Sequence record: PP213477.1
Reading direction: 5' to 3' (one strand)
From: Escherichia phage vB_Eco_ZCEC08
DNA length: 47,926 nt
Positions 6,013-45,766 of this stretch are shown piece by piece. The position numbers and the translations under genes were made by a program. Each line of letters begins with the position of its first letter. The first letter of the stretch is position 1. Below the pieces are notes generated by a model. It ran no database searches. It was not told where the DNA came from and saw nothing but the letters and a program-made list of their open reading frames with translations.

Positions 6013-6264
6013 TCATTCTCCTAGCGCTTTGTTGATTGCACCCTGTGCTGATTTAATCACTTCTGGGTATGCGTCATTCCAGTTTTGCTTATACGCTTTA
6101 CTGAGCATTTTCTGCAAAGCCTCCAGAAGCTCAGGTGCTGCAGCGATGACGTTGGCATCATCCTTATTGGTAACATCGCACACGAATTGGTCGCCATTAC
6201 TATAGACCCCACCAAGTTCATCATCGTAATGCCACGACCCAGGGATTCCTTTAAATTCTTCCAT
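6013..6264 (-). CDS. Ead/Ea22-like family protein
   Basis: motif IAAAPELLEAL...INKALGE shared with ORF 37490..37771; ATG at residue 5 of the track ORF. Confidence 0.5.
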   Translation of the reverse strand: MEEFKGIPGSWHYDDELGGVYSNGDQFVCDVTNKDDANVIAAAPELLEALQKMLSKAYKQNWNDAYPEVIKSAQGAINKALGE

Positions 6265-6272
6265 CACCAACC

Positions 6273-6416
6273 TCACTTAATATATTCAACAATCTCAACT
6301 TCGCGCATCTGCACCAGACTAAATGGCGCAACCACCTTGCCGTACGGACGGATTTTGATTTGCTCAAGGCTGAACATTCTGCGACAACCGCTTTCTTTGA
6401 ATTTGACTATTGCCAT
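6273..6416 (-). CDS. small hypothetical protein (47 aa)
   Basis: hand-translated MAIVKFKESGCRRMFSLEQIK...; not in ORF track; first gene of the minus cassette. Confidence 0.3.
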   Translation of the reverse strand: MAIVKFKESGCRRMFSLEQIKIRPYGKVVAPFSLVQMREVEIVEYIK

Positions 6417-6440
6417 GATTTCTCCCTCACTCATCATTTA

Positions 6441-6477
6441 ATGTAGATACTATGCACCACCACTCAATCTACGTCAA
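6441..6477 (-). promoter_or_regulatory. candidate minus-strand promoter (TTGACG ... TAGTAT) with inverted ATCTAC motifs
   Basis: reverse complement reads TTGACGTAGATTGAGTGGTGGTGCATAGTATCTACAT. Confidence 0.35.
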
Positions 6478-6521
6478 TAGTCATTGTGATAGAATTAATC
6501 ATTATTTGAACTGGAGGCAGA

Positions 6522-6800
6522 ATGAAACTATCGCAACGAGGCGTGGAGACGTTTGGAATTACCGATGCCGTGGATATATCGCCTTACATCACTACCGAGA
6601 CAACGCAGAATCAGTTCGACGCGCTGGCAAGTCTTGCCACCGACATTGGCATTTACGCGTTCCGTAAATCAACGCTTCTGAAGAAGCACAACCTCCGCTG
6701 CTTCTCATGTGCTGTTGCGCATTTCATCGCGTGGGGCGAGAAGACTGGCGACAAAGCAAAACGCAAAGCTGAAAAAGAGGTTTACTGGTATGGCTATTAG
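6522..6800 (+). CDS. hypothetical protein (92 aa) upstream of endolysin
   Basis: ORF track; GGAGG upstream; not hydrophobic enough to call a holin. Confidence 0.45.
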   Translation: MKLSQRGVETFGITDAVDISPYITTETTQNQFDALASLATDIGIYAFRKSTLLKKHNLRCFSCAVAHFIAWGEKTGDKAKRKAEKEVYWYGY

Positions 6801-7254
6801 TAAAAACATGAAGGCGTTTCTGGATATGCTGGCGTACAGCGAGGGCACTGATAACGGGCGGCAGAAAACCAATAATCATGGTTATGATGTGATTGTTGGC
6901 GGCTCACTGTTTACCGACTATTCCGACCACCCGCGCAAGCTGATTAGCCTGCCAAGGCTGGGCATTAAATCCACCGCCGCCGGTCGCTATCAGGTACTGG
7001 CTAAGTTTTATGATGCGTACAAAAAGCAATTGCGTTTACCGGACTTCTCCCCCGCATCGCAGGACGCCATTGCAATGCAGCTAATCCGTGAATGCAAGGC
7101 CACCGCTGATATTGAGGCTGGTCGCATTGCTGATGCCATCCATAAATGCCGCTCCCGCTGGGCCTCATTGCCGGGCGCTGGGTATGGTCAGCATGAGCAG
7201 AAGCTGGATAAGCTGATTCGGGTATACAAAGAGGCTGGCGGAGCTGTGGCATGA
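6790..7254 (+). CDS. R: endolysin, lambda R-like lytic transglycosylase
   Basis: MAISKNMKAFLDMLAYSEGTDNGRQKTNNHGYDVIVGG...WASLPGAGYGQ matches the lambda R sequence as recalled from memory. Confidence 0.85.
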   Translation: MAISKNMKAFLDMLAYSEGTDNGRQKTNNHGYDVIVGGSLFTDYSDHPRKLISLPRLGIKSTAAGRYQVLAKFYDAYKKQLRLPDFSPASQDAIAMQLIRECKATADIEAGRIADAIHKCRSRWASLPGAGYGQHEQKLDKLIRVYKEAGGAVA

Positions 7255-7481
7255 AAAAGCTAAGCAACTGGCTGCTCGCCGCGTGGATTTCATTCTGCTC
7301 GCTGTTACAACTATGGCCTGATGCAATGATGCATGTGTGGGTAATGATGCCGGATGACCTGAAAGCAGCGCTACCGCCAATCGTGGTCAAAGGTGTGAGT
7401 TACTCCATCATGCTTGTCGGCATCCTCGGCAAAATGCACGGCATGAGGAAGGAAAACCGGAGGCTGCGCGATGGTGAGTGA
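7251..7481 (+). CDS. putative holin (two hydrophobic segments)
   Basis: 76 aa; hydrophobic stretches WLLAAWISFCSLLQLW and VSYSIMLVGILG, charged C-terminus; ATGA overlap with endolysin stop. Confidence 0.4.
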   Translation: MKKLSNWLLAAWISFCSLLQLWPDAMMHVWVMMPDDLKAALPPIVVKGVSYSIMLVGILGKMHGMRKENRRLRDGE

Positions 7482-7621
7482 GCAAAGAGATGTATTGGTG
7501 CTGGAATGGGTGCGCATAACCAGCAAGGAAGACAATATTGAGTCGGCGTGGCGCGCACTTAAAAATCGCTCACAATTGGTGCAGTTTGCAACTCGTCGGT
7601 GTTTTATATGGAGGTTGCGCA

Positions 7622-8113
7622 ATGATGTCGATTCTCGCTAAATACTGGCGACTGCTGGCAATTATTATAATTGTTGCTGCCTGCGCGCTATGGATTCGCG
7701 GAGAGGTTATAGACTACGGCGACCAGCGATACGCAGAAGGCAAAGCTCAAGCCATCGCAGACCAGAAGGCTGCAGACAAAAAAGAGGAGCAACGACGCAA
7801 TGCAGAACTGCAAAAGATTCAGTCCGACGCACAGCAAAGGATTGATGCTGCGCGCAATGATGCTGTTAATGCTGCTGCTAAGTCTGGCAGGTTGCAGCAA
7901 CAACTCACCAGTATCCGCAAGCAGCTCGTCGGATATTCCACCGCTGAGTCCATTGGCAACCCAGCCGCAGAAACCGGAGTTTTGCTTGCAGACGTGCTCC
8001 GCAAATCTGTCGAAAGAAATCAACAGCTGGCAGATTACGCTGACAGGGCGAGAGAGGCAGGATTGACGTGTGAGGCACAGTATAATTCTCTGCGTAATAA
8101 AAAAGCCCCGTGA
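7622..8113 (+). CDS. Rz: i-spanin (Rz-like)
   Basis: start at MMSILAKYWRLLAIIIIVAACALW (N-terminal TM segment) after GGAGG; coiled-coil periplasmic part; contains embedded Rz1 frame. Confidence 0.65.
   Translation: MMSILAKYWRLLAIIIIVAACALWIRGEVIDYGDQRYAEGKAQAIADQKAADKKEEQRRNAELQKIQSDAQQRIDAARNDAVNAAAKSGRLQQQLTSIRKQLVGYSTAESIGNPAAETGVLLADVLRKSVERNQQLADYADRAREAGLTCEAQYNSLRNKKAP
7845..8066 (+). CDS. Rz1: o-spanin (Rz1-like lipoprotein) embedded in Rz
   Basis: signal peptide MLRAMMLLMLLLSLAGC with lipobox LAGC; proline-rich mature region; lies wholly inside Rz in another frame. Confidence 0.65.
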   Translation: MLRAMMLLMLLLSLAGCSNNSPVSASSSSDIPPLSPLATQPQKPEFCLQTCSANLSKEINSWQITLTGRERQD

Positions 8114-8128
8114 TGGGGCTTTGTTTTA
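8100..8128. terminator. bidirectional rho-independent terminator
   Basis: AGCCCC-GTGA-TGGGGCT flanked by A-run and T-run; Rz stop codon in the loop. Confidence 0.55.
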
Positions 8129-8147
8129 ACCTTCTCCGTAGCCAATG

Positions 8148-8525
8148 TCACGCATAAAGCGCCTCCATCTTGTACCCAAACATAATTGCATTCTGATGCT
8201 CAGTGCTACCAGAAAACACCAGATAGCGTTTACCTCGATTATCCGTAACGATGTAGGCAGCTGGTGAGTTTTCCTTCCTAAATCTGGCTTCGTCATCACT
8301 CCCTTCATACATCCTCCCACTCGCTGGCAGATACAAATCGAATGTTTGAATTTCCGTTCCGCTGCATTCATTGCTACGTTCATTGAACAGGATAGCCAAT
8401 CTTGGGTTGCCATTGGAATGCTTTGCAGGGAATGCGATTCTCCAGCCATCGTACATATACTGACTTGGGTAGGATAGCCATGACTTACCGCGCCTACCCT
8501 CCGTAAGAATCGGCTTACTCGCCAT
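8148..8525 (-). CDS. hypothetical protein
   Basis: ORF track 8148..8573; start moved to MASKPIL (residue 17) with GGAGG upstream. Confidence 0.5.
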   Translation of the reverse strand: MASKPILTEGRRGKSWLSYPSQYMYDGWRIAFPAKHSNGNPRLAILFNERSNECSGTEIQTFDLYLPASGRMYEGSDDEARFRKENSPAAYIVTDNRGKRYLVFSGSTEHQNAIMFGYKMEALYA

Positions 8526-8790
8526 TATGATCCTCCACAATCCGCACCAGTGAGCACTCAAGATTCGGTGCATTGTAATTACCAGCCAGAAACAGCACGC
8601 TACCAGTGCTAATAAGCACCTGCTTCGCGTTCGCCTGCGACAGATTCTGCACGATGAATTGCGCTGTTTCTGTGCCGATTTTCAGCACTGCGCTGCCGTC
8701 GCTGTTCAGTGATACAAGTTGTGCGGAAGTGTCAGTAATGTTGGTGAAGTTCGCGTTTCGCTGCGCGATTGTGATGTCGCAAAAAGACAT
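8515..8790 (-). CDS. hypothetical protein (91 aa)
   Basis: ORF track. Confidence 0.5.
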   Translation of the reverse strand: MSFCDITIAQRNANFTNITDTSAQLVSLNSDGSAVLKIGTETAQFIVQNLSQANAKQVLISTGSVLFLAGNYNAPNLECSLVRIVEDHNGE

Positions 8791-9092
8791 TATTTAATCT
8801 CTCCGTTCAGTTCATTAACAATTAACGTTGCATAGCCAGCAATATCTTTCCAGCTGTCATCATAAGTCGGGTCGCCATTCAGAATGCGCCCAATCTTGTG
8901 CTGAATCATGTCGAGCGCCTCGCGTTGACTTGGTGTGAGATTGCGCCAGCCATCTACCTCGCGCATCACATCTTTCAACTCCTGCATAATTTCAGCGCCG
9001 TCTTTGAATTTACCGTATCGACTACCGCGTTCGGTGATGAGTCGCTCTGTTGCGTCAGTATGGCGCTTATCGCCCGTGATTTGTGAACTCAT
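8790..9092 (-). CDS. hypothetical protein (100 aa)
   Basis: ORF track. Confidence 0.5.
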   Translation of the reverse strand: MSSQITGDKRHTDATERLITERGSRYGKFKDGAEIMQELKDVMREVDGWRNLTPSQREALDMIQHKIGRILNGDPTYDDSWKDIAGYATLIVNELNGEIK

Positions 9093-9579
9093 TGTGATGC
9101 ATTCTCCTGAATTCTTTTATTTTTGCTTCTGCTTCTCTTATGTCGGAAAAGTAACCAACTGTGAATCTTTTGCCATTTACTCCAACTCTTGCATGCCACT
9201 TGTTGTGCGATGAACTCCAGTTAACCCCCTTGATACCGCTAGTGTTGTTTTTGTTCATTGCTTTGTTGTGGCTATTCTCAAATTTGCTGGCCTCCCTTAA
9301 ATTGCACGCCCTGTTGTCATTGCGAATGCCATTAATGTGGTCAATCATTTCACTTGCTGGCGCGCCATGAATGCATATCCATGCCAATCTGTGAGCAAGA
9401 AAAGCCCTACCGCAAAGAATTATTTGCACATATCCATCTGGCTTTAAGTAGCCAGCCACACTCCCTTTTTCTGCAATCCTATTCCTTGTCTTTAGCCATT
9501 TAAATTCCCCAGTTAGTGGATTGTAGTAAAGGTAACTCAATATAAACTCCCTACTCGGCTCATCTCTCCTATGCCTCAT
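9067..9579 (-). CDS. HNH homing endonuclease (AP2-domain type), paralogue 1
   Basis: HRLAW..., IDHINGIRNDNRACNLREAS, GVNWSSSHNKWHARV; paralogous to 10322..10861 and 47414..47926. Confidence 0.7.
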   Translation of the reverse strand: MRHRRDEPSREFILSYLYYNPLTGEFKWLKTRNRIAEKGSVAGYLKPDGYVQIILCGRAFLAHRLAWICIHGAPASEMIDHINGIRNDNRACNLREASKFENSHNKAMNKNNTSGIKGVNWSSSHNKWHARVGVNGKRFTVGYFSDIREAEAKIKEFRRMHHNEFTNHGR

Positions 9580-9782
9580 TTCTCATCCTCTTTCATTGTC
9601 ACCCTATTATTCTCGTCAACACTGAAGTTGGCCCGAATCAAATCATACATATCTTCCTTAGGCATATCAGCCAGCGCCACATAGCAACGGGCGAAGTAGC
9701 GAACATCACGGAGTGTCAGCGGTTGTCGCTTCTCCACAATGCTGGTGATAATGCCCATCGGCTCGCGTCGTGGTCTTGGCAT
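9576..9782 (-). CDS. hypothetical protein (68 aa)
   Basis: ORF track; first gene of the minus operon. Confidence 0.45.
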   Translation of the reverse strand: MPRPRREPMGIITSIVEKRQPLTLRDVRYFARCYVALADMPKEDMYDLIRANFSVDENNRVTMKEDEK

Positions 9783-9808
9783 ATTTACTACTCCTTCTCG
9801 AAAAACAT

Positions 9809-9853
9809 CTTGACGTTTCTACATCATTTAGTCAATACTTGTTGACGTAGATT
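9809..9853. promoter_or_regulatory. divergent regulatory region with inverted TCTACATCA / TGACGTAGA motifs
   Basis: CTTGACGTTTCTACATCATTTAGTCAATACTTGTTGACGTAGATTG between divergent genes. Confidence 0.3.
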
Positions 9854-9881
9854 GTACCACAACGGAAAAGGTGATGTGGAA

Positions 9882-10079
9882 ATGCGATACAAAGAAATAG
9901 CAGCGAGATACCAGAAGGAAGTTCGCGAGGTTATGGAAATCCTTAACGTTCGCGAGGATACCATTAAGTTTGTGGAAACCGCCATGTGTTCACTGGCGCT
10001 TGAAGCGGAGGTTGCGGGTCGTGAAAAGGCTGACGAACTTATATCTGCGGTGGTTTATAGTTCAACCAGTAACGGTTGA
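9882..10079 (+). CDS. hypothetical protein
   Basis: internal ATG (residue 11 of ORF 9852..10079) after AAAGGTGA. Confidence 0.45.
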   Translation: MRYKEIAARYQKEVREVMEILNVREDTIKFVETAMCSLALEAEVAGREKADELISAVVYSSTSNG

Positions 10080-10139
10080 AGATGAAGGTTATCTGTGCGT
10101 TGAGCACGTTGTTATCAAATTCTACGGGAGAAATTATAA

Positions 10140-10334
10140 ATGGCGCATGACGAACTGTACGAAGAATCGTTAATCCAGAGGTTGAATGAAGTTGAGCGCA
10201 CTCGCGAATGGCTGGAGTGCGAGTTACGAGAAGTGCGCAACCGCCTGCAACGCAAGCGCAGTCAGCAAAGAGATGTCATCGACTGGTCTGGGGGTACACC
10301 TAAATTTAACAATCTGGGAGAATGGTTGAAATGA
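10140..10334 (+). CDS. hypothetical protein (64 aa)
   Basis: ORF track. Confidence 0.4.
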   Translation: MAHDELYEESLIQRLNEVERTREWLECELREVRNRLQRKRSQQRDVIDWSGGTPKFNNLGEWLK

Positions 10335-10861
10335 GCAACATTAGTCAGGAAAGCATTTTAAAGTTCCTCCAGTATGATGAAAATACAGGAAACTTTCTAT
10401 GGATTGATAATTTCTCAAGAAAATCAAAGAAAGGGAAGGTGGCTGGAGGTATTACATCGCATGGGTATTGGAGAATTCAACTCCCCATCGGGAGGTTTTA
10501 CGCACACAGAATGGCGTGGATTGTTTGCAATGGAGATATACCAAACGGATATGAGATTGATCACATAAATGGGAACAAGAAAGATAATCGCATCAGCAAC
10601 CTAAGATTGGTCACAAGAGGTCAAAATGTTATGAATGTAGGCGTGAAAAACAATAATACAAGCGGAGTTAAGGATGTTGTTTGGGACTCTTCGCGAGAAA
10701 GGTGGGGGGTTCAAATTACAGCCAATGGCAAGCATTATTATGGAGGTAGATTCTCGTCAATAACACAAGCAAAAGAGGAGAGGAACAGGCTCATAAAGAT
10801 GGTTCACGGGAAATTTTTGAATACAAAAGGTGAGCAATATGACACTACTAATGAACGATGA
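10322..10861 (+). CDS. HNH homing endonuclease (AP2-domain type), paralogue 2
   Basis: HRMAW..., IDHINGNKKDNRISNLRLVT, GVKDVVWDSSRERWGVQI. Confidence 0.7.
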   Translation: MVEMSNISQESILKFLQYDENTGNFLWIDNFSRKSKKGKVAGGITSHGYWRIQLPIGRFYAHRMAWIVCNGDIPNGYEIDHINGNKKDNRISNLRLVTRGQNVMNVGVKNNNTSGVKDVVWDSSRERWGVQITANGKHYYGGRFSSITQAKEERNRLIKMVHGKFLNTKGEQYDTTNER

Positions 10862-11075
10862 GAAATTACTTGAATGCCCGTTTTGTGGTTGTGATGACGT
10901 AAGTGTTATTGATGACGGCGAATGGTTGCACGTTGAGTGCGGAGATTGTTTTTGCCGCACTGACTCGTATTGCTGCGCATCCACGGCAATGAAGAAATGG
11001 AACACAAGAGGTGGACACCTCTACACTTCCGACGACTTCAATCAGGCAGCAGAGGAGCGCGATTATGGATTATAA
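10830..11075 (+). CDS. Lar-like restriction alleviation protein (zinc ribbon)
   Basis: N-terminal LLECPFCGCDD...C..C pattern typical of the Lar family; exact start uncertain. Confidence 0.45.
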   Translation: MSNMTLLMNDEKLLECPFCGCDDVSVIDDGEWLHVECGDCFCRTDSYCCASTAMKKWNTRGGHLYTSDDFNQAAEERDYGL

Positions 11076-11553
11076 ATCACAAATCATGCGCGTGATTGTC
11101 AATCATCCAGGGGCAACGCGTGCATATATTGAAAAGCATTGCGGAGGTAAGCATTCAAGCACCACAACGCACCGTTTACATGAGATGCTTGCGCTTGGAT
11201 TCATTCGTCGAGAGAAGTCCGTGATTCGTGGTGGTAAGTGGCAGTATAAGTATTTCATCTCTGAGGATGCAGCAGGTATTGATGATGCGATTAAGTGCCA
11301 TTTGCTTGATAACGCTGGCGCAGAGGTGAAAGAAATCAGTGCAGCCACTGACCTTGATTACCGAATTGTAAAAAGCCGCATCCGCATTATGTTTCATAAC
11401 GGTGATGTGACGCGAAGCTATGACCACCACAAGAAGCTGTGGCGTTACTCATGGAAGGAGCAGGAAGTAAATATGAGCAATCTGTTTAATTCACTTCTTC
11501 GCAGCGCAAGAGGTCATTATGGGAAAAGCGAAACGCAAGAAGCAGGAGTATGA
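11065..11553 (+). CDS. hypothetical protein
   Basis: internal ATG (residue 19 of ORF 11011..11553) overlapping upstream stop. Confidence 0.5.
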   Translation: MDYKSQIMRVIVNHPGATRAYIEKHCGGKHSSTTTHRLHEMLALGFIRREKSVIRGGKWQYKYFISEDAAGIDDAIKCHLLDNAGAEVKEISAATDLDYRIVKSRIRIMFHNGDVTRSYDHHKKLWRYSWKEQEVNMSNLFNSLLRSARGHYGKSETQEAGV

Positions 11554-11678
11554 GCAATTACCGCCATGCAAAATGTCAGGAATGCCGCAACAGGAGGATG
11601 TGATTCTCACCGAAGCTGAGTGGCGCAAGGTGGCGAGGGTGCAAATCATGTTCCGCAAACTTGCTGAGGATGTACTAA

Positions 11679-12083
11679 ATGAGATGGGCTATTAAGCATA
11701 AATCTGGCAGAACTCTGTTTGTGACATCAGATGAGTTTATTGCCAATAACCGTAAAGAGATGGGCTGGATAGTGGAGGAAGTGAAGATGACGAGTAGAGA
11801 GCAGTTTGAAAAAGAAATGAGTGACAAGTATGAGTGGTTCAGTGATGCGATCGCTTGTGCTGATTTTTGCGGTGACGATGATGATGGCTACTATGTTGGC
11901 GGTGATTACCTCTATTATGGGAAGTCATGTTCAGAGGCTTTGTTTTGGTTATGGCGAGGATGGCAGGCATCGCGCGCAGCAATTGAGATTCAAGCGTGTC
12001 CATGTCCAAACGATCATGGCCCGAATGTTGATGACCATTATCGCGAGCAAATTAATAACGCAGGCTTAAAGGTGAAAAAATGA
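11679..12083 (+). CDS. hypothetical protein (134 aa)
   Basis: ORF track. Confidence 0.5.
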   Translation: MRWAIKHKSGRTLFVTSDEFIANNRKEMGWIVEEVKMTSREQFEKEMSDKYEWFSDAIACADFCGDDDDGYYVGGDYLYYGKSCSEALFWLWRGWQASRAAIEIQACPCPNDHGPNVDDHYREQINNAGLKVKK

Positions 12084-12406
12084 TTATCCAGTTAAACGAC
12101 ATCATGAAAGCAGATATCATTCAGCTTGAAGATTATGACATGCAACTGGCGTTTGAAATCGAAACTGTCGAGCGTCAACTGCAGTATGCTGATAAGAAGA
12201 ATGATCGCGTCTGGCACGAGAAAGCACTTAAGGCGCGCGACCACATGAAGCGCACGCGAGCACTCATTAAAACTCGTCTTGATAAGCTATATTTTGGCGA
12301 AGAGCGAATGCTGCATGGCGCTATACTGGCGCAAATCCGCAAGGAAATGCCGATTGGTAAGTTTATGACATACGTTCATCGCGCAAAGCAGGAGGCTGGG
12401 TTATGA
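12080..12406 (+). CDS. hypothetical protein (108 aa)
   Basis: ORF track; ATGA overlap with upstream gene. Confidence 0.5.
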   Translation: MIIQLNDIMKADIIQLEDYDMQLAFEIETVERQLQYADKKNDRVWHEKALKARDHMKRTRALIKTRLDKLYFGEERMLHGAILAQIRKEMPIGKFMTYVHRAKQEAGL

Positions 12407-12659: not shown

Positions 12660-12714
12660 CTCCGTATATCTTTTGTTCATCATGGGCTGCTATCATTTAA
12701 TCAGGAGGTAGCCC

Positions 12715-15718: not shown

Positions 15719-16518
15719 TACCTGATTTCACCATACACCATGTATTGCAGCATGTAGCAGAATTCCCATTGCGTCATATCCTTGCGCAGCCACTTTCTGT
15801 TTTTCTTCCAGTTGAACTCTGCCGGCTCAGCTTTGAGGTTATGTAGTGAATTCACCAGCTCTGGGTAGACAAGGTTGTTTTTTACAAACCAGTCCACTGG
15901 AAGTATGTGATCTATATGCCAGCAACTACGGTTATCAAAGCTCATCCATGGCTCCATAGTTGACTCTATGTGTTTTATAAAATCACTTTTTGTATAACCA
16001 AGCACATCATCAACGGTTTTATCAATGACAACGTCGGACAACCTCATATCAATTCTTTCAAGCATCTTCCTTAGGAACACGTGGTGGGGGTGTTTCTTTT
16101 GCCATTGCTTGACGTTATCCAGAGCCTTTTTGTTGCCTTTCTCAGAGTAATACCATTTACGGTACGCATCCCTTCTTCTTCTGAGAAATTCCTCCATCTT
16201 TTTTATGTCTGAGCTTAATCTTTTTTTGTATTTCTTGTGAAACTCCCTATCTCTCTCTTTCTTCATTGCCTTGAATTCTGGATTGTTTTTATTTTTTAAC
16301 CACTCTTCTTTGTTTTTCTGCCTCATCTTTTCTTTGTATTCAGTAGTAGACCTTCTTGCTCTTGTTCTTTCGTATACGCAATGCTTGCATCCTCCTGATG
16401 CTGTAAAAAACACAGTTCCACCGCATACAGAGCATGGAACCCATTCGCATACAAATTGCTTCAATCCAGCAACCCTTGCTTCTTGCGCAGCTTCTTTTCT
16501 TGTCTTCATAAAAGTCAC
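15703..16518 (-). CDS. HNH-like nuclease with N-terminal zinc ribbon
   Basis: CxxC...CxxC at N-terminus, lysine-rich middle, C-terminal WHIDHILP...LHNLKA...N motif. Confidence 0.45.
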   Translation of the reverse strand: MTFMKTRKEAAQEARVAGLKQFVCEWVPCSVCGGTVFFTASGGCKHCVYERTRARRSTTEYKEKMRQKNKEEWLKNKNNPEFKAMKKERDREFHKKYKKRLSSDIKKMEEFLRRRRDAYRKWYYSEKGNKKALDNVKQWQKKHPHHVFLRKMLERIDMRLSDVVIDKTVDDVLGYTKSDFIKHIESTMEPWMSFDNRSCWHIDHILPVDWFVKNNLVYPELVNSLHNLKAEPAEFNWKKNRKWLRKDMTQWEFCYMLQYMVYGEIRYKEGG

Positions 16519-18487: not shown

Positions 18488-19293
18488 ATCTTCTCCAGAA
18501 TTGCCATCACCTCGTGAATATCAGCAACAGGAATCTTGATAAACTCCTCATTCTCTGCCACTACATGACCAGCAAGAAGAATAACGTGGTCAGCTGGCTT
18601 CAGTAACTCAATCAGTCGGTCTACTGGCTTAATCTTTTTCGACTTAAGCACCTTCGCCGTTACCTTATCCTTGCCTTGCGCCTTCGCTTCTTCGACTGCC
18701 TCGTCGATAACTTTAACCGCATCATCGCCATGTTCGCGAGTTACTGCTACGGCATTTGCATAGCTGATTTGCCCTGCACTGATTCGCGCTTTTACTTCGG
18801 CTGGCACATCACCCAGTGACAGGTGCATCTGCACGTCAGAAACTGAGCGCCCTACCTTCTTGGCGATTTCCTCGTTGGTCCAGCCAAAACCCTTCAGTCG
18901 CGTGTAAGCCTTTGCGCGTTCAAACGGGTCAAGCTGCTTACCCTGACTGGACGACACCATGAAGGCGATTTTATCTGCTTCGCCTCCTGTGAAATCCTTG
19001 CACTCAATACGAACAATTGGTGCGCCACGCTCAATGGCACGCAATGCGCCTAGATAGCGATGCTGACCATCAAGAATGCGGATTCCCTTCTCATCAGGAA
19101 TAACTGTTAATGCTGGTAATGGCTGACCTGATTCCCAGCACTGCGCGAAATACTCCACATGCTGCTCGTCTGCTTCGCGGATGTTGTATCCCGGCTCCAG
19201 ATAGATTTGCTCCACTGGCACGAGATAGGTTTTGTTAACAGCGATTCCGTTGCGCGTTTCTTTGTCTGAATAGATTTTGCTAAGTGTTTTCAT
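18484..19293 (-). CDS. ParB-like nuclease domain protein
   Basis: ILDGQHRY (ParB/Srx DGxHR motif) plus helix-turn-helix-like TNEEIAKKVGRSVSDV; start moved to residue 32 (MKTLSK). Confidence 0.65.
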   Translation of the reverse strand: MKTLSKIYSDKETRNGIAVNKTYLVPVEQIYLEPGYNIREADEQHVEYFAQCWESGQPLPALTVIPDEKGIRILDGQHRYLGALRAIERGAPIVRIECKDFTGGEADKIAFMVSSSQGKQLDPFERAKAYTRLKGFGWTNEEIAKKVGRSVSDVQMHLSLGDVPAEVKARISAGQISYANAVAVTREHGDDAVKVIDEAVEEAKAQGKDKVTAKVLKSKKIKPVDRLIELLKPADHVILLAGHVVAENEEFIKIPVADIHEVMAILEKM

Positions 19294-19294
19294 A

Positions 19295-19486
19295 TCATTC
19301 ACCACTTTCTTCCAATAATTGCTCGTAATATGCGACGTACTCATTAGCAAGATGGTACAGGCGCTCAGCAGACTTGCGTTCTGCATTACTTAAGTCACCA
19401 ATAGACTCAATGTTGCCAATTGCATCAACACAATCATTGAAGTCTTGCTCTGTATTACGAAATCGACAGTAGGACATGTTTGCCAT
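19295..19486 (-). CDS. hypothetical protein (63 aa)
   Basis: ORF track. Confidence 0.4.
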   Translation of the reverse strand: MANMSYCRFRNTEQDFNDCVDAIGNIESIGDLSNAERKSAERLYHLANEYVAYYEQLLEESGE

Positions 19487-27740: not shown

Positions 27741-31544
<3,804 letters not shown>

Positions 31545-36548: not shown

Positions 36549-37487
36549 TTATAAATTAAATTGCTTCTTGAACCATTCAGGCGTTTCCATTTCGATAACA
36601 GGATTACCCATTGAATAACCCGGCCACGAATTGGCTTTTTTGCACGCCTTGTAAATTTCCATTGCACCATTCAACTGAATGCGACCGATTCGTAATTGCT
36701 CTTCAGTCAAACGAATCAAAGCAGGAATAAATGGAGCTTTCTTTTCCTGCACGAGAAGATTCACAGAGCGTGGCGCATAACCGTATGCAGCAACAAACAT
36801 ATCGTGTTGCATAGCCATTTTCATAAAGTAGCCAAGTCGCGCAGCATGACGGAAAAACTCTTCAGGCTTGGCGCTCACTGCCGTTTTGTAGTCAATAATG
36901 TCACCACCTTTTGTCAGGCAGTCAAAACGAACTTTTGCTTTTTCTCCGTTAAGTTCACCGAGAATTGACACTTCAGCATAAGCGCCAGCAAGAAGGCTGC
37001 TGTAGTAGCTGTTTGCGTGTATTACAGCACGCATTTGCTGAATTGCGTCATAATCACTACCTTCCAGCATCTGCTTTCCTGCAGCAGCTTTTTCAGCATC
37101 TTCACGGATGACATCGTAAATTTTCACTGGTTCGCCAGTCGCCTGAATAATTTTGATTACCTCAGCTTTCGACTTCCCTGATAGTCCTTTAATGCCACGC
37201 TCTTTCGCCCATGAGTTCATGTCACTAACTGTAACAAGCAGGTCATCACCAAAATCTTCTTTTGTTGGCATTCGCGCATATTCTGCATCGAAACGCTCAG
37301 GTTCAAGTAGTGCAGTATGGCTTCCAGTTCCGAAGATAAGAGCTTTTGATTGCTCATCTTCTTCGTCTTTGTAGCGCCATGCTGCTGGGCATCTGTCAAG
37401 TATATTCCATAATCCAGAACCATTAATGTGCTCTGTGTCGGCATGGTACTGTTCGTTTGTGAGTTCATTGTTGAAGTAGACTTTCAT
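36549..37487 (-). CDS. PD-(D/E)XK family exonuclease
   Basis: 312 aa; IIDYKT motif consistent with PD-(D/E)XK nuclease; adjacent to ATPase and SSB. Confidence 0.5.
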   Translation of the reverse strand: MKVYFNNELTNEQYHADTEHINGSGLWNILDRCPAAWRYKDEEDEQSKALIFGTGSHTALLEPERFDAEYARMPTKEDFGDDLLVTVSDMNSWAKERGIKGLSGKSKAEVIKIIQATGEPVKIYDVIREDAEKAAAGKQMLEGSDYDAIQQMRAVIHANSYYSSLLAGAYAEVSILGELNGEKAKVRFDCLTKGGDIIDYKTAVSAKPEEFFRHAARLGYFMKMAMQHDMFVAAYGYAPRSVNLLVQEKKAPFIPALIRLTEEQLRIGRIQLNGAMEIYKACKKANSWPGYSMGNPVIEMETPEWFKKQFNL

Positions 37488-37489
37488 AG

Positions 37490-37771
37490 TTATTTGCCTA
37501 ACGCTTTGTTGATTGCTGTAATCGCTTGATTATGTGCGTCACGAGAAATACCATTATTTACCCATCCTAGACATGCTTGCAAAGCACTCAAGAGTTCTGG
37601 GGCGGCGGCTATGAGGTATGCATTGTGCCACTGCTCATCTTTATCCCCGTTATATGTTGGCGTGCTGGCAATATCAACTCCACCATCAGCTACAATATCA
37701 GGCGAATTGTCATCACCAACCACTACTCTCCACGCACCTTTAGTACCTTTGAATTCGTTACTCATCTTCAT
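37490..37771 (-). CDS. Ead/Ea22-like family protein
   Basis: IAAAPELLSALQ...INKALGK shared with 6013..6264. Confidence 0.5.
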   Translation of the reverse strand: MKMSNEFKGTKGAWRVVVGDDNSPDIVADGGVDIASTPTYNGDKDEQWHNAYLIAAAPELLSALQACLGWVNNGISRDAHNQAITAINKALGK

Positions 37772-37803
37772 TACCTCACTTGTTATTGTCAGTTGAATCT
37801 ACA

Positions 37804-40144: not shown

Positions 40145-40401
40145 ATCCTCGCACCAAGACGTTCAATTGTTTGTTTCTTTGTTTCATCATCTATTCCGCT
40201 ATAAAAATACATATAACTAAGATTCCATAGATAATCTTCTGGTCGCTCATCGGCAAACAAATCATCCCACTCAAAAATCCATTCTCCAGTTCTCTGTCTT
40301 CTGTATATGGTTAGCCATGTATTGCTTCGTGGCGGGTATCCGAAGGCAACAGGGATTGGCTTGCCATGAAAAATCCTCTTAAAAATGCTATCAAGGAACA
40401 C
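40138..40401 (-). CDS. hypothetical protein (87 aa)
   Basis: ORF track; start overlaps helicase start region. Confidence 0.45.
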   Translation of the reverse strand: MFLDSIFKRIFHGKPIPVAFGYPPRSNTWLTIYRRQRTGEWIFEWDDLFADERPEDYLWNLSYMYFYSGIDDETKKQTIERLGARIW

Positions 40402-40416
40402 TGCTATATCCTTTTA

Positions 40417-40446
40417 TTGATGTTTCTACGTCAGTTAGCTTATACT
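40417..40446 (+). promoter_or_regulatory. sigma70-like promoter (TTGATG - 18 nt - TATACT) with TCTAC motifs
   Basis: hexamers read directly; about 30 nt upstream of primase ATG. Confidence 0.4.
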
Positions 40447-40476
40447 CAATCTACACCAACAATCAAGGGTCAATTT

Positions 40477-41430
40477 ATGAGATACGACTGGAAAGACATT
40501 GAGCCAAAAATGCTCGGCAACTGGCAGGCTGCCATCATGTCTATCGTCAATGTGGATAGCAGAGTTTTCAATGGCAAGCACCAGCCTTGCCCTTCATGCT
40601 CCGGCAAAGACAGGTATCGCTTTGATGATAGCTTCGAAACAAAGGGCGATGGCGGCGCAATATGCAATCAGTGCGGGTCCGGCAGCGGCATGAACTGGCT
40701 GATGAAACTCTCCGGAATGAGCTTTCCTGAAGCGCTGGAGGCACTTGGTGGATTCCTGAATATGCACCCGCGTGAAAAGCTGGAGGCAATCAGGAAAGAG
40801 CTACCGAAGATAAATCACAGCGATGACTTCATCACCGAGCAGGAAGTCGCAGCAATCATGGCTAAAACGACTCGTGTCGCGATGAATGAGTGGACTTTGA
40901 TAAATGGTATTGGTTGCGACGTTAACGTCACCAGAGGCAAATCTGGAGAACTTATTGCGGTTGAGATGATGCGAGCTGACACAATGAAACTGTGCAACGT
41001 GGCATTCATTGGCATGGATGGTGATTCAATCAGAACGTTTTTCCGCGCAGGATACAACAAGGACTCAGCCATCAACGGCAAACTCACGCGCGGCGCGATA
41101 AGCCCAATCGGAGAAGACAACGGGAAGTTCATTTACCTGGTATCTGATTATGCCGATGCGTGGAAATGCCACTACTTCACTGGCGCTCATGCCTGGTGCT
41201 GCTGGTCGCCGGAAAACATGTGGGAGGTTGTGCGCTCGGTTAGCGATGAAACGAAGGCGAGATTGCGCTGCATAGTTAATTATAAATTTGACGAGCTTTG
41301 CGCTGCGGGAAATGCAGGACTTCCGGTGATGCTACCTGATGATGCTGACACAATCAGGATGGCGAAGCGAATCAGAAGAAAGATTTATGACGCTGGCGAG
41401 TTGATAGAGAAAATGTCAGTCATCAGATAA
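40477..41430 (+). CDS. DNA primase (zinc-ribbon type)
   Basis: start moved to MRYDWKD (residue 38); CPSCSGKDRYRFDD...CNQCGSG zinc-ribbon motif typical of phage primases. Confidence 0.6.
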   Translation: MRYDWKDIEPKMLGNWQAAIMSIVNVDSRVFNGKHQPCPSCSGKDRYRFDDSFETKGDGGAICNQCGSGSGMNWLMKLSGMSFPEALEALGGFLNMHPREKLEAIRKELPKINHSDDFITEQEVAAIMAKTTRVAMNEWTLINGIGCDVNVTRGKSGELIAVEMMRADTMKLCNVAFIGMDGDSIRTFFRAGYNKDSAINGKLTRGAISPIGEDNGKFIYLVSDYADAWKCHYFTGAHAWCCWSPENMWEVVRSVSDETKARLRCIVNYKFDELCAAGNAGLPVMLPDDADTIRMAKRIRRKIYDAGELIEKMSVIR

Positions 41431-41432
41431 AA

Positions 41433-41458
41433 TAAACCCTCCATCTGGAGGGTTTTTG
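41433..41458. terminator. bidirectional rho-independent terminator
   Basis: ACCCTCCA-TCTG-GAGGGT then TTTTGTT. Confidence 0.55.
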
Positions 41459-41875
41459 TTATTCTTTGAACTCTGGCGCTTCAGTCCAGAAAGCTACATT
41501 TCGCAGCGACTTACCAGTGTGATTGCACCAGTATATTCCTGAGTCGTCATACCTGGCAGTAACCTTGACGCGATCAGCATCAATAATAACAACCTCCTGT
41601 CCATCTTTAGGGTCGAAAAGACGCGCATCTTTCCAGTTGGCAATCTCATTAAAGGAAAGAAGAATATAGCCGGGAAGATAATCTCCGACATCATCGATGT
41701 GATCTATGGCTCTCTCCGTTCTCTCTCCTGTGTAGCCTCCATTCCACTCATAAAGAATGATAGTGTCTCCAACCTTAAAATCACGGCCCTTCTTTATTAT
41801 TTCAGCTTTCTTGTGCCCGGTAACTACAGGCCAGAAGTGCTCAGGTAAAATTTTAAGTTCGTGTGTTTTGCTCAT
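41459..41875 (-). CDS. ASCH-like / DUF3850-like protein
   Basis: THELKILPEHFWPVVTGHKKAEIIKKGRDFKVGDTIILYEW pattern. Confidence 0.45.
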   Translation of the reverse strand: MSKTHELKILPEHFWPVVTGHKKAEIIKKGRDFKVGDTIILYEWNGGYTGERTERAIDHIDDVGDYLPGYILLSFNEIANWKDARLFDPKDGQEVVIIDADRVKVTARYDDSGIYWCNHTGKSLRNVAFWTEAPEFKE

Positions 41876-43467
41876 TTCAAACCCCTCATAAATCTCATGC
41901 GCTTAACAGCAGCAGAAAGATAATTTCTAACCGTTGAGTTCATTCGCAGACCATCCCATGAGCCATCACCGCACATCTTTATAGCTCTTGGGTTATCCCT
42001 GTCCAGCATTAGTGGTGAATGCTTATTTTCCTCAATAGCAAGAAGAACCTCATAAACAAACTTATCAGGTGTTAGTGTGATGTTATTAGAGTCAGCAGAA
42101 TTGATTATCTTTTTAATTCTATCACGACACAGCTTGTTCTTTATAACAGACAAGTAAGGCGTTTTAATGAATGCCTGTGATTCACAAATTCGCTTAATTT
42201 TTTCTACAATGTTCTCCCATTCAGTATTTTCAAGTCCATCAAACTCCTGTTCGCCCTCAAGGAATCTTTGCAGACCAGCGAGATGCTCAAGAACTACGAT
42301 ATATCCCCATTCGACATGCTCCATCGTAACTGCTGGCGTCATTCCACGGCGACTTGACAGATCTGCGTAAGCCGCAAGCGTTGCAAGGTCTACAATCATT
42401 AGCCCCATGCGCGGGATAACGTCACCAACAACACCATCGCGATCACCAAGCTCACTTTCCAGTTTCATAGACAGAGATCTGTGCAGTTTTTTCACATCAT
42501 CATCAGCCCATACAGCGTTAGTTTTCGCGGTAAGAATCCTACCCTTCCACTCATTGATTATTTTTCTTGAAAGTGTGCCGCTAGCTTCCACATCCTTCAT
42601 CGCTGGCATTTCCTCACCAGCAAGATGTCCAAGCTGAAACAGCACTCGCCCCATGCCGCCATCTTTCTGCCATGAACGCGCAGCATCTATTCCCTGCTCT
42701 GGAGTGACAGTAATCAGCGGAACAAATTTTGCGTTTTCAATTCCACCGTCTTTTGTTGCAAGTTCGTACTCATTCATTGCCGACTTGAGCGCGCGCCCAA
42801 CGCTGTGGTCCATCATCGCAAGGCGCTTATAATCTATGACGCCTTTCCCATCATCACCACCAGTAAGTGGCACTATCCATCCCTCAGCACTTGCTGCCGC
42901 CATGATGCGTTTTGGGTTTTGTTCCCAAGTAAGGTTTTCAAGCAGCTCCTTGATTATTGGTCTGTTAGGCACCCACACGCCGCCATCAGTGAGGCCTCTA
43001 TACCACGCCATAGTACCGCCAAGATATGCATTGCGCGGGTTGTTCCAGTCTTCAAGATGTTGTTTGTCATCGTTCACAACGTAGAGCAAAGAACCACCTC
43101 CAGCAATCAGGTCTAACTGCATCTGTTTCGTCGAGGTTGATTTAGATGCGCAAACTCTGGAGCCAATTCCCAGTGCATTGGAATATGCCCTAACGAAACT
43201 CACAGGGGCACCCTTACCTGCACCAGAGCGAGCCACCAGAAATATACCAGTATTGCAGATACTACCTGTTGGACCAATCAAATATCGTCCAGCCATCGCC
43301 TGAGTAAGACCCAAGGCACCAGTTAAGCGATATCTCTCCCCATCATTACGGCGCTCAAAGTTTTTCGCAATCTCATCCATAAACTCACCAAGTGCACCAG
43401 GAGCCTTCCTGTTTATACCCATAGCCATAGAATCAAAATCAATAGCGCCCATCAATATACTCTCCAT
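41872..43467 (-). CDS. hypothetical replication-module protein (531 aa)
   Basis: ORF track; degenerate P-loop-like LVARSGAGKGA; function not recognised. Confidence 0.5.
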   Translation of the reverse strand: MESILMGAIDFDSMAMGINRKAPGALGEFMDEIAKNFERRNDGERYRLTGALGLTQAMAGRYLIGPTGSICNTGIFLVARSGAGKGAPVSFVRAYSNALGIGSRVCASKSTSTKQMQLDLIAGGGSLLYVVNDDKQHLEDWNNPRNAYLGGTMAWYRGLTDGGVWVPNRPIIKELLENLTWEQNPKRIMAAASAEGWIVPLTGGDDGKGVIDYKRLAMMDHSVGRALKSAMNEYELATKDGGIENAKFVPLITVTPEQGIDAARSWQKDGGMGRVLFQLGHLAGEEMPAMKDVEASGTLSRKIINEWKGRILTAKTNAVWADDDVKKLHRSLSMKLESELGDRDGVVGDVIPRMGLMIVDLATLAAYADLSSRRGMTPAVTMEHVEWGYIVVLEHLAGLQRFLEGEQEFDGLENTEWENIVEKIKRICESQAFIKTPYLSVIKNKLCRDRIKKIINSADSNNITLTPDKFVYEVLLAIEENKHSPLMLDRDNPRAIKMCGDGSWDGLRMNSTVRNYLSAAVKRMRFMRGLK

Positions 43468-43781
43468 ACTCGCAAGAATTTGCCAGGGATAATACCTTGT
43501 TTCACCGTTAACACAGCGCCAACCCTGTCCGCCTCAATTTTTAGCGCCTTCTGAAGTGACGTCATTGTCATCTGAAAACCTCGCTCTATATCGTATGCGT
43601 AGCACCCATCTCTTCTACCAATCAAAATTGAAGTTGAATACCCGTTCTCAAAGTAAAACTGACACCCATCAGGAGCGGTAAGATTATTTATCACGTCGTG
43701 AGCAAGCGATGTCGTTACAGGGAATATAGGCGCGCAACTCATACCTACCTCACTCAACTCGCTTAATGTGCAAAACTTCAT
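43452..43781 (-). CDS. hypothetical protein
   Basis: ORF track. Confidence 0.4.
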   Translation of the reverse strand: MKFCTLSELSEVGMSCAPIFPVTTSLAHDVINNLTAPDGCQFYFENGYSTSILIGRRDGCYAYDIERGFQMTMTSLQKALKIEADRVGAVLTVKQGIIPGKFLRVWRVY

Positions 43782-43980
43782 CGAAATATGAGCACGTTCT
43801 GAATTTCATCCCAAAATCCTCACCAACCCTTCCGAGACACGCGCGAAATCTTTCAACAGACAGACCTTTATATGCAATGTCCTCATAAGCAATCGAATTA
43901 ACCTGACCAACATCCATATGTTTTGCAACGCGATACACAAACTCCATCTTTGAACCATCACGATACATTTTGTTTCTCAT
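43750..43980 (-). CDS. hypothetical protein (first gene of the replication operon)
   Basis: ORF track 43750..44013; start moved to the ATG that follows GGAGGT. Confidence 0.4.
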   Translation of the reverse strand: MRNKMYRDGSKMEFVYRVAKHMDVGQVNSIAYEDIAYKGLSVERFRACLGRVGEDFGMKFRTCSYFDEVLHIKRVE

Positions 43981-44013
43981 AGTAACCTCCATCTGAATTC
44001 CAGCAGTAACCAT

Positions 44014-44635
44014 AGATAAAAAATAAAATTAACGCAACACAAAACAGGTCTAACCAGCAACAATAGCTACCACACTTAATAACTGGTCAGACCACCATCC
44101 CGTATCTGATATATGTGGATGGCGCCTGTCGTTCAATTTGAACTCGATTTTTACCTAATTTACCGTATATTTATCGGTCGGTTTTTTGCATAAATAATTG
44201 ATTTATAGTATTTTACCTGTTTTACCGTAACTCTAAGGAGTATTTTCATCATTAAGAGTGGTAGTATATTAATTGGTCTAATTTTAAAGAAATCTAATAA
44301 AATCAATATATTAATATAAAAGAATAGCTTACTTACTTCTATAGTATTTACCTGGTAAAACCGGTAACTCCTCCGAAGGCCGCGTCATTACTGGATTCAT
44401 TTTTACCGCCTGTAGGTAAATACAGTAGTTTTCAATCCGTTATTGCTCTTCTAAGCTGTTGATTACCGGTACTTTATTTGGGAAACCGGCATTTACCGGT
44501 TTTTGTGGTGTGATTAATAATCGAGCAACTGGTCCTGTTTCACCAGAACCAACTAATGCGACGCCTGAAAATCATGTTGACGTAGAATCATCATTGATGT
44601 AGATTGAACTAATCGAAACAAACGAGGGTGAAGAG
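44014..44635. repeat. AT-rich non-coding region with iteron-like TTTACC(G) repeats and ACCGGT palindromes; candidate origin
   Basis: direct TTTACC copies near 44148, 44159, 44211, 44221, 44347, 44401; inverted copy near 44415; ACCGGT near 44360, 44465, 44495; no ORF of 60 aa or more. Confidence 0.35.
44577..44605 (+). promoter_or_regulatory. sigma70-like promoter TTGACG-17-TAGATT
   Basis: hexamers read directly; about 30 nt upstream of the ATG at 44636. Confidence 0.45.
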
Positions 44636-44782
44636 ATGAAAATCAAAGACCGAGAAGAATTTGAAGATGCTCAGGCTATGGCGCGCATTGCAGTTGAGCG
44701 CACAAATAACAGTATACCTGCCGACGCATTCTGGAACGCAGCAATGCAGGCGTTAATCTCAGCATATGGCTTAAGCAAATGA
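44636..44782 (+). CDS. small hypothetical protein (48 aa)
   Basis: hand-translated MKIKDREEFEDAQAMARIAVERTNNSIPADAFW...; GAGGGTGAAGAG upstream. Confidence 0.4.
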   Translation: MKIKDREEFEDAQAMARIAVERTNNSIPADAFWNAAMQALISAYGLSK

Positions 44783-44874
44783 CAGGCGCATCATTCGAAC
44801 TTATCGCCAGTCTGGTTATCGTGGCATTCGTCATTATCGCAGTGGCAGTTTCAAAATCAGGGTATAAGGAGTAG
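44779..44874 (+). CDS. small hydrophobic peptide (31 aa)
   Basis: hand-translated MTGASFELIASLVIVAFVIIAVAVSKSGYKE; ATGA overlap. Confidence 0.3.
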   Translation: MTGASFELIASLVIVAFVIIAVAVSKSGYKE

Positions 44875-44962
44875 AAAAATGAGCAACTGGCATAACGAAC
44901 ACATCATGCAGTGGTTTCGCCGTCGCATTAAGTCAATTACTAACTCTTATGAGGTTTAACAA

Positions 44963-45145
44963 ATGGCAAAGACTATATATCGTCGCGAGAAGCTGGAACC
45001 TGAACTCGGTCACGTTGGCGCGCAGAACTTTATGAGCAAGCAGGCACGCAATGCAATGGAATCTATCCGAGTGAATCGCGTTGTGCGCGTGTTTAATGGT
45101 GAAGGCAAGCGAAGAGTAATGGATGAGCTGATTATCGTGTTCTGA
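44963..45145 (+). CDS. hypothetical protein (60 aa)
   Basis: ORF track. Confidence 0.4.
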   Translation: MAKTIYRREKLEPELGHVGAQNFMSKQARNAMESIRVNRVVRVFNGEGKRRVMDELIIVF

Positions 45146-45181
45146 CCTCGATTCAGGTGACTTATTTTTAATGGTGATGAT

Positions 45182-45409
45182 ATGGCAAAAGTGAAAACAT
45201 ACGAGTTCTGGCTTGCACAGAACAAAATGTATGCAAGCAAGGAAATCAAGAGAGCACGCTGGTGGAATAAATTGTTAATCCTGTCCGGCTGCATAGTGCT
45301 GGCAAAGTGCAAATTCAAAGCGATTGACATCACCGATGAGGATGCGCTCACAATCGCAAAGATTGAGTTTGAAGAAGATGGATATCACGAAGAAATTATT
45401 GGGGGTTAG
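45182..45409 (+). CDS. hypothetical protein (75 aa)
   Basis: ORF track. Confidence 0.45.
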   Translation: MAKVKTYEFWLAQNKMYASKEIKRARWWNKLLILSGCIVLAKCKFKAIDITDEDALTIAKIEFEEDGYHEEIIGG

Positions 45410-45412
45410 GGT

Positions 45413-45766
45413 ATGAGTGAAGTTAATTACCAGGCACTGCGTGGGATAGCAAAACAAGCAACACAAGGCGAATGGGTCGCATTTATTTCGCAGGGTACTG
45501 GTACGTATGCGGTGCATACGCCAGGTGATAAACGATGTGAAGACATTATCAAATGGACCGGCTTTGATGGACAGAAAAACGCAAAGAACAACGCTCGTTA
45601 TATCGCAGCTTTAAACCCAGCAGTGGTTCAGGCACTACTGGATGAACTGGAAGCTCAAAGTAAACGCATTGCAGAACTGGAGTCTGCATTAAATCGCCAT
45701 TATGAGATCCCTGACGTTTATGATATGGCGATAAAGCAATTCGAAAGCCTGGCTAAAAGTGAATAG
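45413..45766 (+). CDS. Ead/Ea22-like family protein (third paralogue)
   Basis: ARYIAALNPAVVQALLDELEAQSKRIAELE matches the Ea22-type IAA..P..V.ALLD.LEA motif. Confidence 0.5.
   Translation: MSEVNYQALRGIAKQATQGEWVAFISQGTGTYAVHTPGDKRCEDIIKWTGFDGQKNAKNNARYIAALNPAVVQALLDELEAQSKRIAELESALNRHYEIPDVYDMAIKQFESLAKSE

Follow-up and report, generated by a model that had tools for sequence, protein, structure and literature searches.

Why a short motif should recur in three small, widely separated genes is the question raised by the genome of Escherichia phage vB_Eco_ZCEC08. This genome is complete (47,926 bp), and it is the whole stretch of DNA analysed here (the window). The phage was published as a virulent siphophage without lysogenic behaviour, akin to Macdonaldcampvirus and Swiduovirus (PMC12001532), and among the records of the phage collection Salmonella phage vB_SenS_ST1UNAM comes closest to it, with 97–98% DNA identity. 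The three open reading frames (ORFs) are referred to as ORF1, ORF2, and ORF3 (Table 1). ORF1 and ORF2 have IAAAPELL(E/S)ALQ and a C-terminal AINKALG(E/K) in common, and ORF3 carries the motif YIAALNPAVVQALLDELEA. The original prediction regarded them as dispersed Ead/Ea22-like paralogues, suggesting a duplicated adaptor or regulatory domain placed upstream of different genes. The ORFs and their motifs do lie where it put them: the stop codon of ORF1 is 1 nt ahead of the start of an ORF of 216 amino acids (aa), that of ORF2 is 2 nt ahead of the exonuclease start, and ORF3 is located within a cluster of small early ORFs. The reading that we favour, with reasonable rather than high confidence, is that the three genes are members of one old superfamily, made up of small accessory proteins of phages that are acidic and non-enzymatic, which would act as binding modules, are horizontally shuffled, and are dispensable.

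The family membership of ORF3 is straightforward. It matched Ead_Ea22 (PF13935) with 87.8 bits over positions 1–100 of the 139-position profile, for which the Pfam gathering threshold is 27 bits. PF13935 was likewise matched by all 108 representatives collected with ORF3, and a protein 100% identical to ORF3 is annotated by NCBI as the 'Ead/Ea22-like protein' of vB_Eco_ZCEC08. ORF3 has the organization described for Ead/Ea22, in which a central coiled coil comes after a short N-terminal region (PMC10834534). The variable acidic dimeric C-terminal domain of the lambda Ea22 type was not found in ORF3, which ends 20 residues past the coiled coil. Since equally short members of the family (91–145 aa) are numerous, this domain is not universal in Ead/Ea22. 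These profile matches identify ORF3 as a bona fide Ead/Ea22 protein.

ORF1 and ORF2 belong elsewhere. Neither of them matched PF13935 at E ≤ 10 in the Pfam scan, so that the comparison with Ea22 profiles, set beforehand as a check, was passed by ORF3 and failed by the other two. Both matched phrog_1273 over the full length (ORF1, E = 9.8e-20, residues 5–87 on profile positions 3–100 of 103; ORF2, E = 1.1e-19). In precomputed assignments, PF27050 is carried by P0001, which is identical to the 91-aa form of ORF2, and by all 120 listed homologues. PF27050 is a recent Pfam family, and ORF1 is placed as PF27050-type via phrog_1273, its PF27050 evidence coming from the homologues of ORF2. The family of ORF1 and ORF2 is called family A in what follows. 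The two proteins are 37% identical (BLASTP, E = 3e-10), and their similarity extends well past the motif because the alignment covers the full length. The family-A anchors (F6, G8, W13, P57, L59, and the C-terminal A-x-x-A-I-N-K-A-L-G) are all present in both, and the long coiled-coil helix that follows the N-domain in the AlphaFold2 (AF2) model of ORF3 is absent from both. Judged from these matches, ORF1 and ORF2 are true but old paralogues, forming a sister family to Ead/Ea22 (phrog_1273; P22 orf78 / ST104 ORF18 type). Weak matches of ORF1 to phrog_1138 and phrog_1667 were also seen, and both of these are strongly matched by ORF3. When a family-A hidden Markov model (HMM) was run on all 862 six-frame ORFs of the window, ORF2 (6e-37), ORF1 (1.9e-22), and ORF3 (E = 0.0095) were found, and the next match had E = 2. 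Since ORF3 is the sole further match, the genome contains exactly three copies. Neither NCBIfam nor PADLOC matched any of the three ORFs or either operon partner of ORF1, and PDB sequence searches with both families gave nothing meaningful.

The second ATG of ORF2, at 37765, is probably its true start, giving 91 aa; it is favoured because of the Shine-Dalgarno spacing and of the annotated homologue P0001 (ST1UNAM annotation, 91 aa). The same 9-nt AAGTGAGGT Shine-Dalgarno context precedes ORF1 and ORF2.

The relation between the two families is visible at the profile level. A family-A alignment composed of ORF1, ORF2, and diverse homologues was compared by hhalign with a diverse alignment of the Ead/Ea22 N-domain; for the latter, 1.84 billion representatives were searched exhaustively with residues 1–82 of ORF3 as the query (294 matches at E ≤ 0.001). 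The two profiles aligned with 94.6–95.9% probability (E, 6e-9 to 7e-8) over 60–64 columns, from KGTxGxW through the NAxxIAAxP..LLxAL helix. The score was 45.8, as compared with 11.6 ± 2.5 (maximum 19.8) for 100 column-shuffled Ead profiles, a difference of ~14 standard deviations, and with 25.5 for the reversed Ead profile. The GxW block stayed in register after removal of the IAAAP motif. A protein of 1270 aa with glycine/aspartate-rich repeats (P0380) also matched ORF3, at residues 16–58 in seven stretches (E = 8e-13, 28% identity). This match is probably a compositional or repeat artefact, and the protein was left out of the alignments.

The predicted structures agree with the profile alignment. 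The AF2 model of ORF2 (predicted local distance difference test score, pLDDT, 87.8) has strands at 13–17, 23–27, and 32–35 and helices at 43–54, 56–67, and 76–89. The model of ORF3 (pLDDT 86.1) has helices at 6–15, 57–66, 69–97, and 100–116 and strands at 22–26 and 31–35; its continuous helix of 29 residues at 69–97 (pLDDT 92–97) is of the coiled-coil type. The order of elements is the same in both models: the Trp of GxW opens strand 1, and a hairpin or meander, the NAxxIAA helix, a proline break, and a second helix follow. Beyond this common unit, ORF3 has an extra N-terminal helix and an extended second helix, and ORF2 has a separate C-terminal helix. In Foldseek searches against BFVD, eight targets were common to the top-50 lists of ORF2 and ORF3, and one of the BFVD entries, A0A8G1P4I9, was matched by both models at E < 0.01. 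The profile alignment and the models, compared by element order, thus support one homologous module of ~60 residues in the three proteins, which fall into two families. As for the expectation of three Ead/Ea22-like paralogues, it stands for ORF3 and for the common domain, and it does not stand for ORF1 and ORF2 as members of the Ea22 model.

Conservation within the families has a clear pattern. The family-A pattern common to ORF1 and ORF2 is M.EFKGTxGxW ... ANAxLIAAAPELLEAL ... AINKALGE; throughout the family, F6, G8, W13, the LIAAAPELLxAL stretch, and the terminal A..AINKALG are invariant or nearly so. The conserved positions of Ead/Ea22 are W21, W48, G50, P69, and I64-A65. Conservation, both inside each family and from one family to the other, falls on core-forming residues (Gly, Trp, Ala, Ile, Leu, and Pro), and no polar constellation of the catalytic type was found among the conserved columns of either family. 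The family-A segment from GxW to the helix is 18–60 residues long and acidic (median net charge, -5). The isoelectric point has a median of 5.0 in family A and is 4.47 for ORF1 and 5.10 for ORF2.

This variable part is exchanged as a unit. When 116 family-A sequences were cut at the conserved junction, 52 core types and 39 tail types were obtained, in many combinations. ORF1 is of core type 49 and tail type 1. The tail of ORF2 is joined to 11 different cores, and the core type of ORF2 to four tail types; one protein (P0003) consists of exactly the ORF2-type core and the ORF1-type tail. Three core pairs violated the four-gamete test. Family A is a two-cassette mosaic, whose cores and tails are freely reassorted at the conserved junction.

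How the copies came into this genome is another matter. In the motif, nearly every synonymous position differs between ORF1 and ORF2 (ATCGCTGCAGCACCTGAGCTTCTG vs ATAGCCGCCGCCCCAGAACTCTTG), so that what is conserved is the protein sequence and the two genes separated long ago; selection in this motif has acted on the protein, not on DNA identity. Apart from the ST1UNAM gene, the closest relatives of ORF2 are Skatevirus genes with 59% identity, closer than ORF1 is, and these occupy the slot of ORF1, beside the lysis cassette. The synonymous differences and the nearest relatives in other genera led us to reject recent intragenomic duplication or gene conversion, and the domain cannot be called duplicated in the sense of copying within this genome. 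Where the VRR-NUC-like gene meets exonuclease VIII there is an insertion hot spot, which is occupied by ORF2 in ZCEC08 and ST1UNAM only, by an HNH endonuclease in HC6, 6947, HC8A, and Bas77-79, and by a 58-aa ORF in swi2 and Skate. Skate and swi2 each have two family-A genes, and the second copy is located directly upstream of a ParB-like gene. In ST1UNAM, the ParB-like gene is preceded by a gene annotated as 'EaC protein', so that the first positions of early operons seem to be places where accessory genes are exchanged for one another.

ORF3 has a different and more recent history. Its N-domain and the start of its coiled coil have 88–91% DNA identity to ead/Ea22-like genes in 269 of the 5426 complete E. 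coli genomes, and the carriers of such an N-segment are chromosomes and ~47-kb plasmids. The 'EaE protein' gene of ST1UNAM, which is in the slot of ORF3, has in common with ORF3 only MSEV, the RIAELE stretch, and the QFESLAKSE tail. ORF3 keeps the first four codons and the QFESLAKSE tail of the resident gene, and the junction is in the RIAELE coiled-coil stretch. ORF3 is a chimera, in which a prophage-derived N-domain replaced the N-terminus of an unrelated resident 'EaE'-type gene. The DNA identities indicate that the source of the N-domain is the gene pool of lambdoid prophages and phage-plasmids and that the import was recent. These genes are shown to move between virulent and temperate phages.

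As a side observation, the AP2-type domain (NTSG.KGV.W....KW.A) seen in the HNH homing endonucleases of ZCEC08 recurs in at least three ORFs of the window, which also contains a further HNH endonuclease. This content fits the order of genes in the relatives, which is strongly mosaic.

Table 1. Positions of the three ORFs, of their neighbours, and of related genes in other phages.
Feature	DNA	Position	Strand	Remarks
ORF1	ZCEC08	6013..6264	-	83 aa from ATG; family A, phrog_1273, PF27050-type, P22 orf78 type; layout: GxW, acidic beta-core, NVIAAAPELLEAL helix-Pro-helix, C-terminal helix with end AINKALGE
216-aa protein	ZCEC08	5361..6011	-	phrog_7798; function not known; translationally coupled to ORF1
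54-aa ORF	ZCEC08	6273..6437	-	phrog_21280; opens the small leftward operon 54 aa - ORF1 - 216 aa
Promoter-like site	ZCEC08	6477..6449		one end of the ORF1 operon
Bidirectional terminator	ZCEC08	5257..5279		other end of the ORF1 operon
Shine-Dalgarno context of ORF1	ZCEC08	6265..6280	-	
ORF2	ZCEC08	37490..37771	-	93 aa; family-A paralogue, an insert flanked by the VRR-NUC-like gene and exonuclease VIII
Shine-Dalgarno context of ORF2	ZCEC08	37772..37790	-	
Exonuclease VIII-type PD-(D/E)XK nuclease	ZCEC08	36549..37487	-	phrog_412, E=3e-92; DUF3799; directly downstream of ORF2
VRR-NUC-like / exonuclease VIII junction	ZCEC08	37488..37803		
ORF3	ZCEC08	45413..45766	+	117 aa; Ead/Ea22 family, PF13935 E=1.3e-24; layout: helix at the N-terminus, beta-hairpin with GxW, helix with NARYIAALNP, long coiled-coil helix, short tail
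N-domain and coiled-coil start of ORF3	ZCEC08	45413..45682	+	imported segment; DNA identity to prophage genes
AP2-type ORFs and HNH endonuclease	ZCEC08	47414..47926 (+), 9070..9582 (-), 10310..10858 (+), 46166..46690 (+)		
'EaE protein' gene	ST1UNAM (L001)	45202..45483		slot of ORF3
58-aa ORF	Skate (L008)	37502..37678		
gp11	Skate (L008)	6709..7548		279 aa
gp46	swi2 (L009)	28749..29399		65% identity to the 216-aa protein
Second family-A gene	Skate (L008)	19077..19448	-	first gene of the ParB-like operon
Second family-A gene	swi2 (L009)	15785..16093	+	first gene of the ParB-like operon
DUF551 gene	swi2 (L009)	10849..11049		

The neighbourhoods bear on the original suggestion that the shared domain is an adaptor or regulator for the product of the gene immediately downstream, that is, the 216-aa protein, exonuclease VIII, or the small early ORFs. 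Some features speak for it. One is the tightness of the junctions: the gaps are 1–2 nt for ORF1 and ORF2, and the family-A gene overlaps the next gene by 1–4 nt in about 27 of 74 loci. Another is that the pair of ORF1 and the 216-aa gene is conserved across three genera, Swiduovirus, Skatevirus, and that of ZCEC08. The partner keeps its position in swi2 as gp46, and Skate gp11 matched it (E = 2e-23) with conserved ends (KLIxLLVxELPKRGGW ... IYxAIAAGKIPGVKL) and a replaced middle; the 216-aa protein is itself a mosaic. The last is that the family-A gene is located directly upstream of a ParB-like gene in Skate, in swi2, and in five IMG/VR loci.

A survey of 80 diverse IMG/VR viral loci with a family-A gene, 74 of which were used for the downstream clusters, gave a different picture. 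The downstream genes fell into 51 unrelated clusters among the 74, and the upstream genes into 60. Those recurring downstream (TraR/DksA zinc finger, 8 loci; ParB-like, 5; DUF551, 2; MazG, 2; RecT, 1) are mutually unrelated. Two family-A genes within 6 kb were found in 6 of the 80 loci, and an Ead/Ea22-type gene on the same strand within 3 kb of the family-A gene was found in none of them. The pairing of ORF2 with the exonuclease is limited to ZCEC08 and ST1UNAM, and the slot is variable elsewhere. In temperate phages, family A is located in the early-left (pL) accessory region, the one carrying ead and ea22: the ST104 member is ORF18 (P22 orf78-like), among ral, sieB, 17, and kil, and the mEp213 member (mEp213_049) lies just after N. 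Because ST104 orf19 is unrelated to the 216-aa protein and 51 clusters were found, a family-A neighbour conserved across temperate and virulent phages was rejected. An adaptor role toward the downstream gene is accordingly distinctly unlikely as a general explanation. What survives of the suggestion is that ORF1 and the 216-aa protein are conserved as a pair; the two may be functionally linked, with ORF1 working together with its partner.

In two viral loci (L073 and another IMG/VR locus; see also swi2 in Table 1), the family-A gene is immediately followed by a gene that encodes DUF551 on its own. DUF551 is also fused to the C-terminus of Ead/Ea22 proteins, in 2 of the 108 representatives; Ea22 V2 is a described example of such a fusion (PMC10834534). 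The fusion and the adjacency could hint that the module and DUF551 work together.

A more radical alternative is that family A and Ead/Ea22 are unrelated, and that NAxxIAAxP..LL and GxW are convergent or a chance likeness of alanine-rich helices. BLASTP did find no similarity between ORF1 and ORF3, and between ORF2 and ORF3 it gave E = 0.021 with the alignment placed on the motif. The similarity beyond the motif that had been looked for pairwise is thus confirmed for ORF1 and ORF2, is not seen by BLASTP for ORF3, and for ORF3 becomes significant at the profile level. In addition, PF13935 is matched by no family-A member, an Ead profile of low diversity aligned only the 25-column motif (85%), and the Ead HMM gave E = 1.1 for ORF2 and E = 3.3 for ORF1 within the window. 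Nevertheless, the diverse profile aligns columns that include both anchors, far above the shuffles. Two independent AF2 models have an identical order of secondary structures, and their fold searches have targets in common. In temperate phages the two families share a genomic niche, and a few submitters have already used the label 'Ead' for family-A genes. We thus regard an unrelated origin as very unlikely. Less probable still is the idea of a DNA-binding domain like AP2, with a three-stranded sheet and a helix, through which these small proteins would regulate transcription or DNA. It was dropped after the AP2-profile comparison: no sequence-profile relationship to AP2/ERF PF00847 was found (1–2%), and the putative DNA-facing strands are acidic and hypervariable, not a basic sheet.

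What, then, might the superfamily do? In the reading as binding modules, the conserved anchors (GxW and helix-Pro-helix) would form a folding scaffold. The variable acidic beta-core of family A would bind a host or phage protein early in infection, and the coiled coil together with the variable tail would be the binding surface in Ead/Ea22. ORF3 probably oligomerizes via its coiled coil, by analogy with the tetrameric lambda Ea22. Rather than being enzymes or DNA binders, the products would modulate host takeover, superinfection, or the evasion of defences, and the phage could dispense with them; ORF2 would be a cassette that was inserted on its own and need not act with the exonuclease. The argument that the variable surface binds a protein is indirect, and the binding mechanism in this detail is put forward tentatively, with clearly less confidence than the superfamily reading itself, in which the identities and the homology have good support.

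Several points weigh against the superfamily of binding modules. The homology is based on profile-profile and predicted-structure evidence, the models being compared by the order of their elements, and no family-A member reaches Ead_Ea22 alone; PF13935 was not among the families matched at E ≤ 1 by any of 97 family-A members. For no member of family A is a binding partner, a phenotype, or a biochemical activity known. Two-hybrid screens with lambda Ea22 gave no partner (PMC7093339). The sole described Ea22 phenotype is prolysogenic and is not literally applicable to ZCEC08; because this phage is reported as strictly lytic (PMC12001532), such a role cannot be transferred as such to ORF3. Our search of the literature on PF27050, on DUF6221, and on a defence role of Ea22-like proteins found nothing functional.

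A bolder version, which we consider rather unlikely, is that family A, and by extension the N-module of Ead/Ea22, is a display scaffold. It would combine invariant anchors, a hypervariable acidic beta-core, cassette exchange, and often two or three copies per genome, and each variant would neutralize a different host factor or defence protein. If this is true, the scaffold would be a widespread and unrecognized class of modular anti-defence or host-takeover decoys.

The outcome is mostly a clarification of annotation, giving the reason why the motif recurs three times in a phage that is a therapeutic candidate. Two 'hypothetical proteins', ORF1 and ORF2, are placed in the superfamily of Ead/Ea22. 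The import of the N-segment of ORF3 is direct evidence of gene flow from temperate elements to a phage considered for therapeutic use. Two modest points, the link of PF27050 with Ead/Ea22 and the reassortment of core and tail cassettes, may be new, although the link may already be recorded in Pfam; both provide an experimental handle on very common, functionally blank early phage proteins. Current views of phage biology are unchanged; these are ordinary, horizontally exchanged accessory genes in a published genome.

Finally, the three proteins can be compared with the known systems. Lambda ea22 is transcribed early and is nonessential, and its product is tetrameric; the C-terminal domain alone is inactive, and the prolysogenic effect depends on the N-terminal and coiled-coil parts (PMC10834534, PMC7093339, PMC10695390). 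The tetramerization and the prolysogenic effect are known from experiments on lambda and Stx phages (PMC10834534, PMC7093339). ORF3 resembles Ead/Ea22 (PF13935 / IPR025153; lambda Ea22, P22 Ead) in having the N-terminal segment and the coiled coil, and in the same mosaic habit of a common N-terminal part with a swappable C-terminal part; it differs from lambda Ea22 (182 aa) in being short and in having no C-terminal domain. The likeness of ORF1 and ORF2 to Ead/Ea22 is limited, at the profile level, to the N-terminal module of ~60 residues, whereas they do not reach the Pfam model, lack the coiled coil, and carry a C-terminal helix of their own. On the Ead/Ea22 side there is also an overlap with DUF6221 (PF19730), a family of small proteins of actinobacteriophages and actinobacteria: 20 of the 108 Ead/Ea22 representatives touch it (best E = 4.6e-4), and the ORF3 model finds many proteins of Mycobacterium, Gordonia, and Arthrobacter phages in BFVD. 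None of the three ORFs matched DUF6221 in the Pfam scan; the overlap suggests a wider superfamily. As compared with PF27050 / phrog_1273 (P22 orf78, ST104 ORF18, mEp213_049), nothing sets ORF1 and ORF2 apart from the family in themselves, and what is peculiar is that ORF2 lies within the recombination operon, as it does in ZCEC08 and ST1UNAM only.

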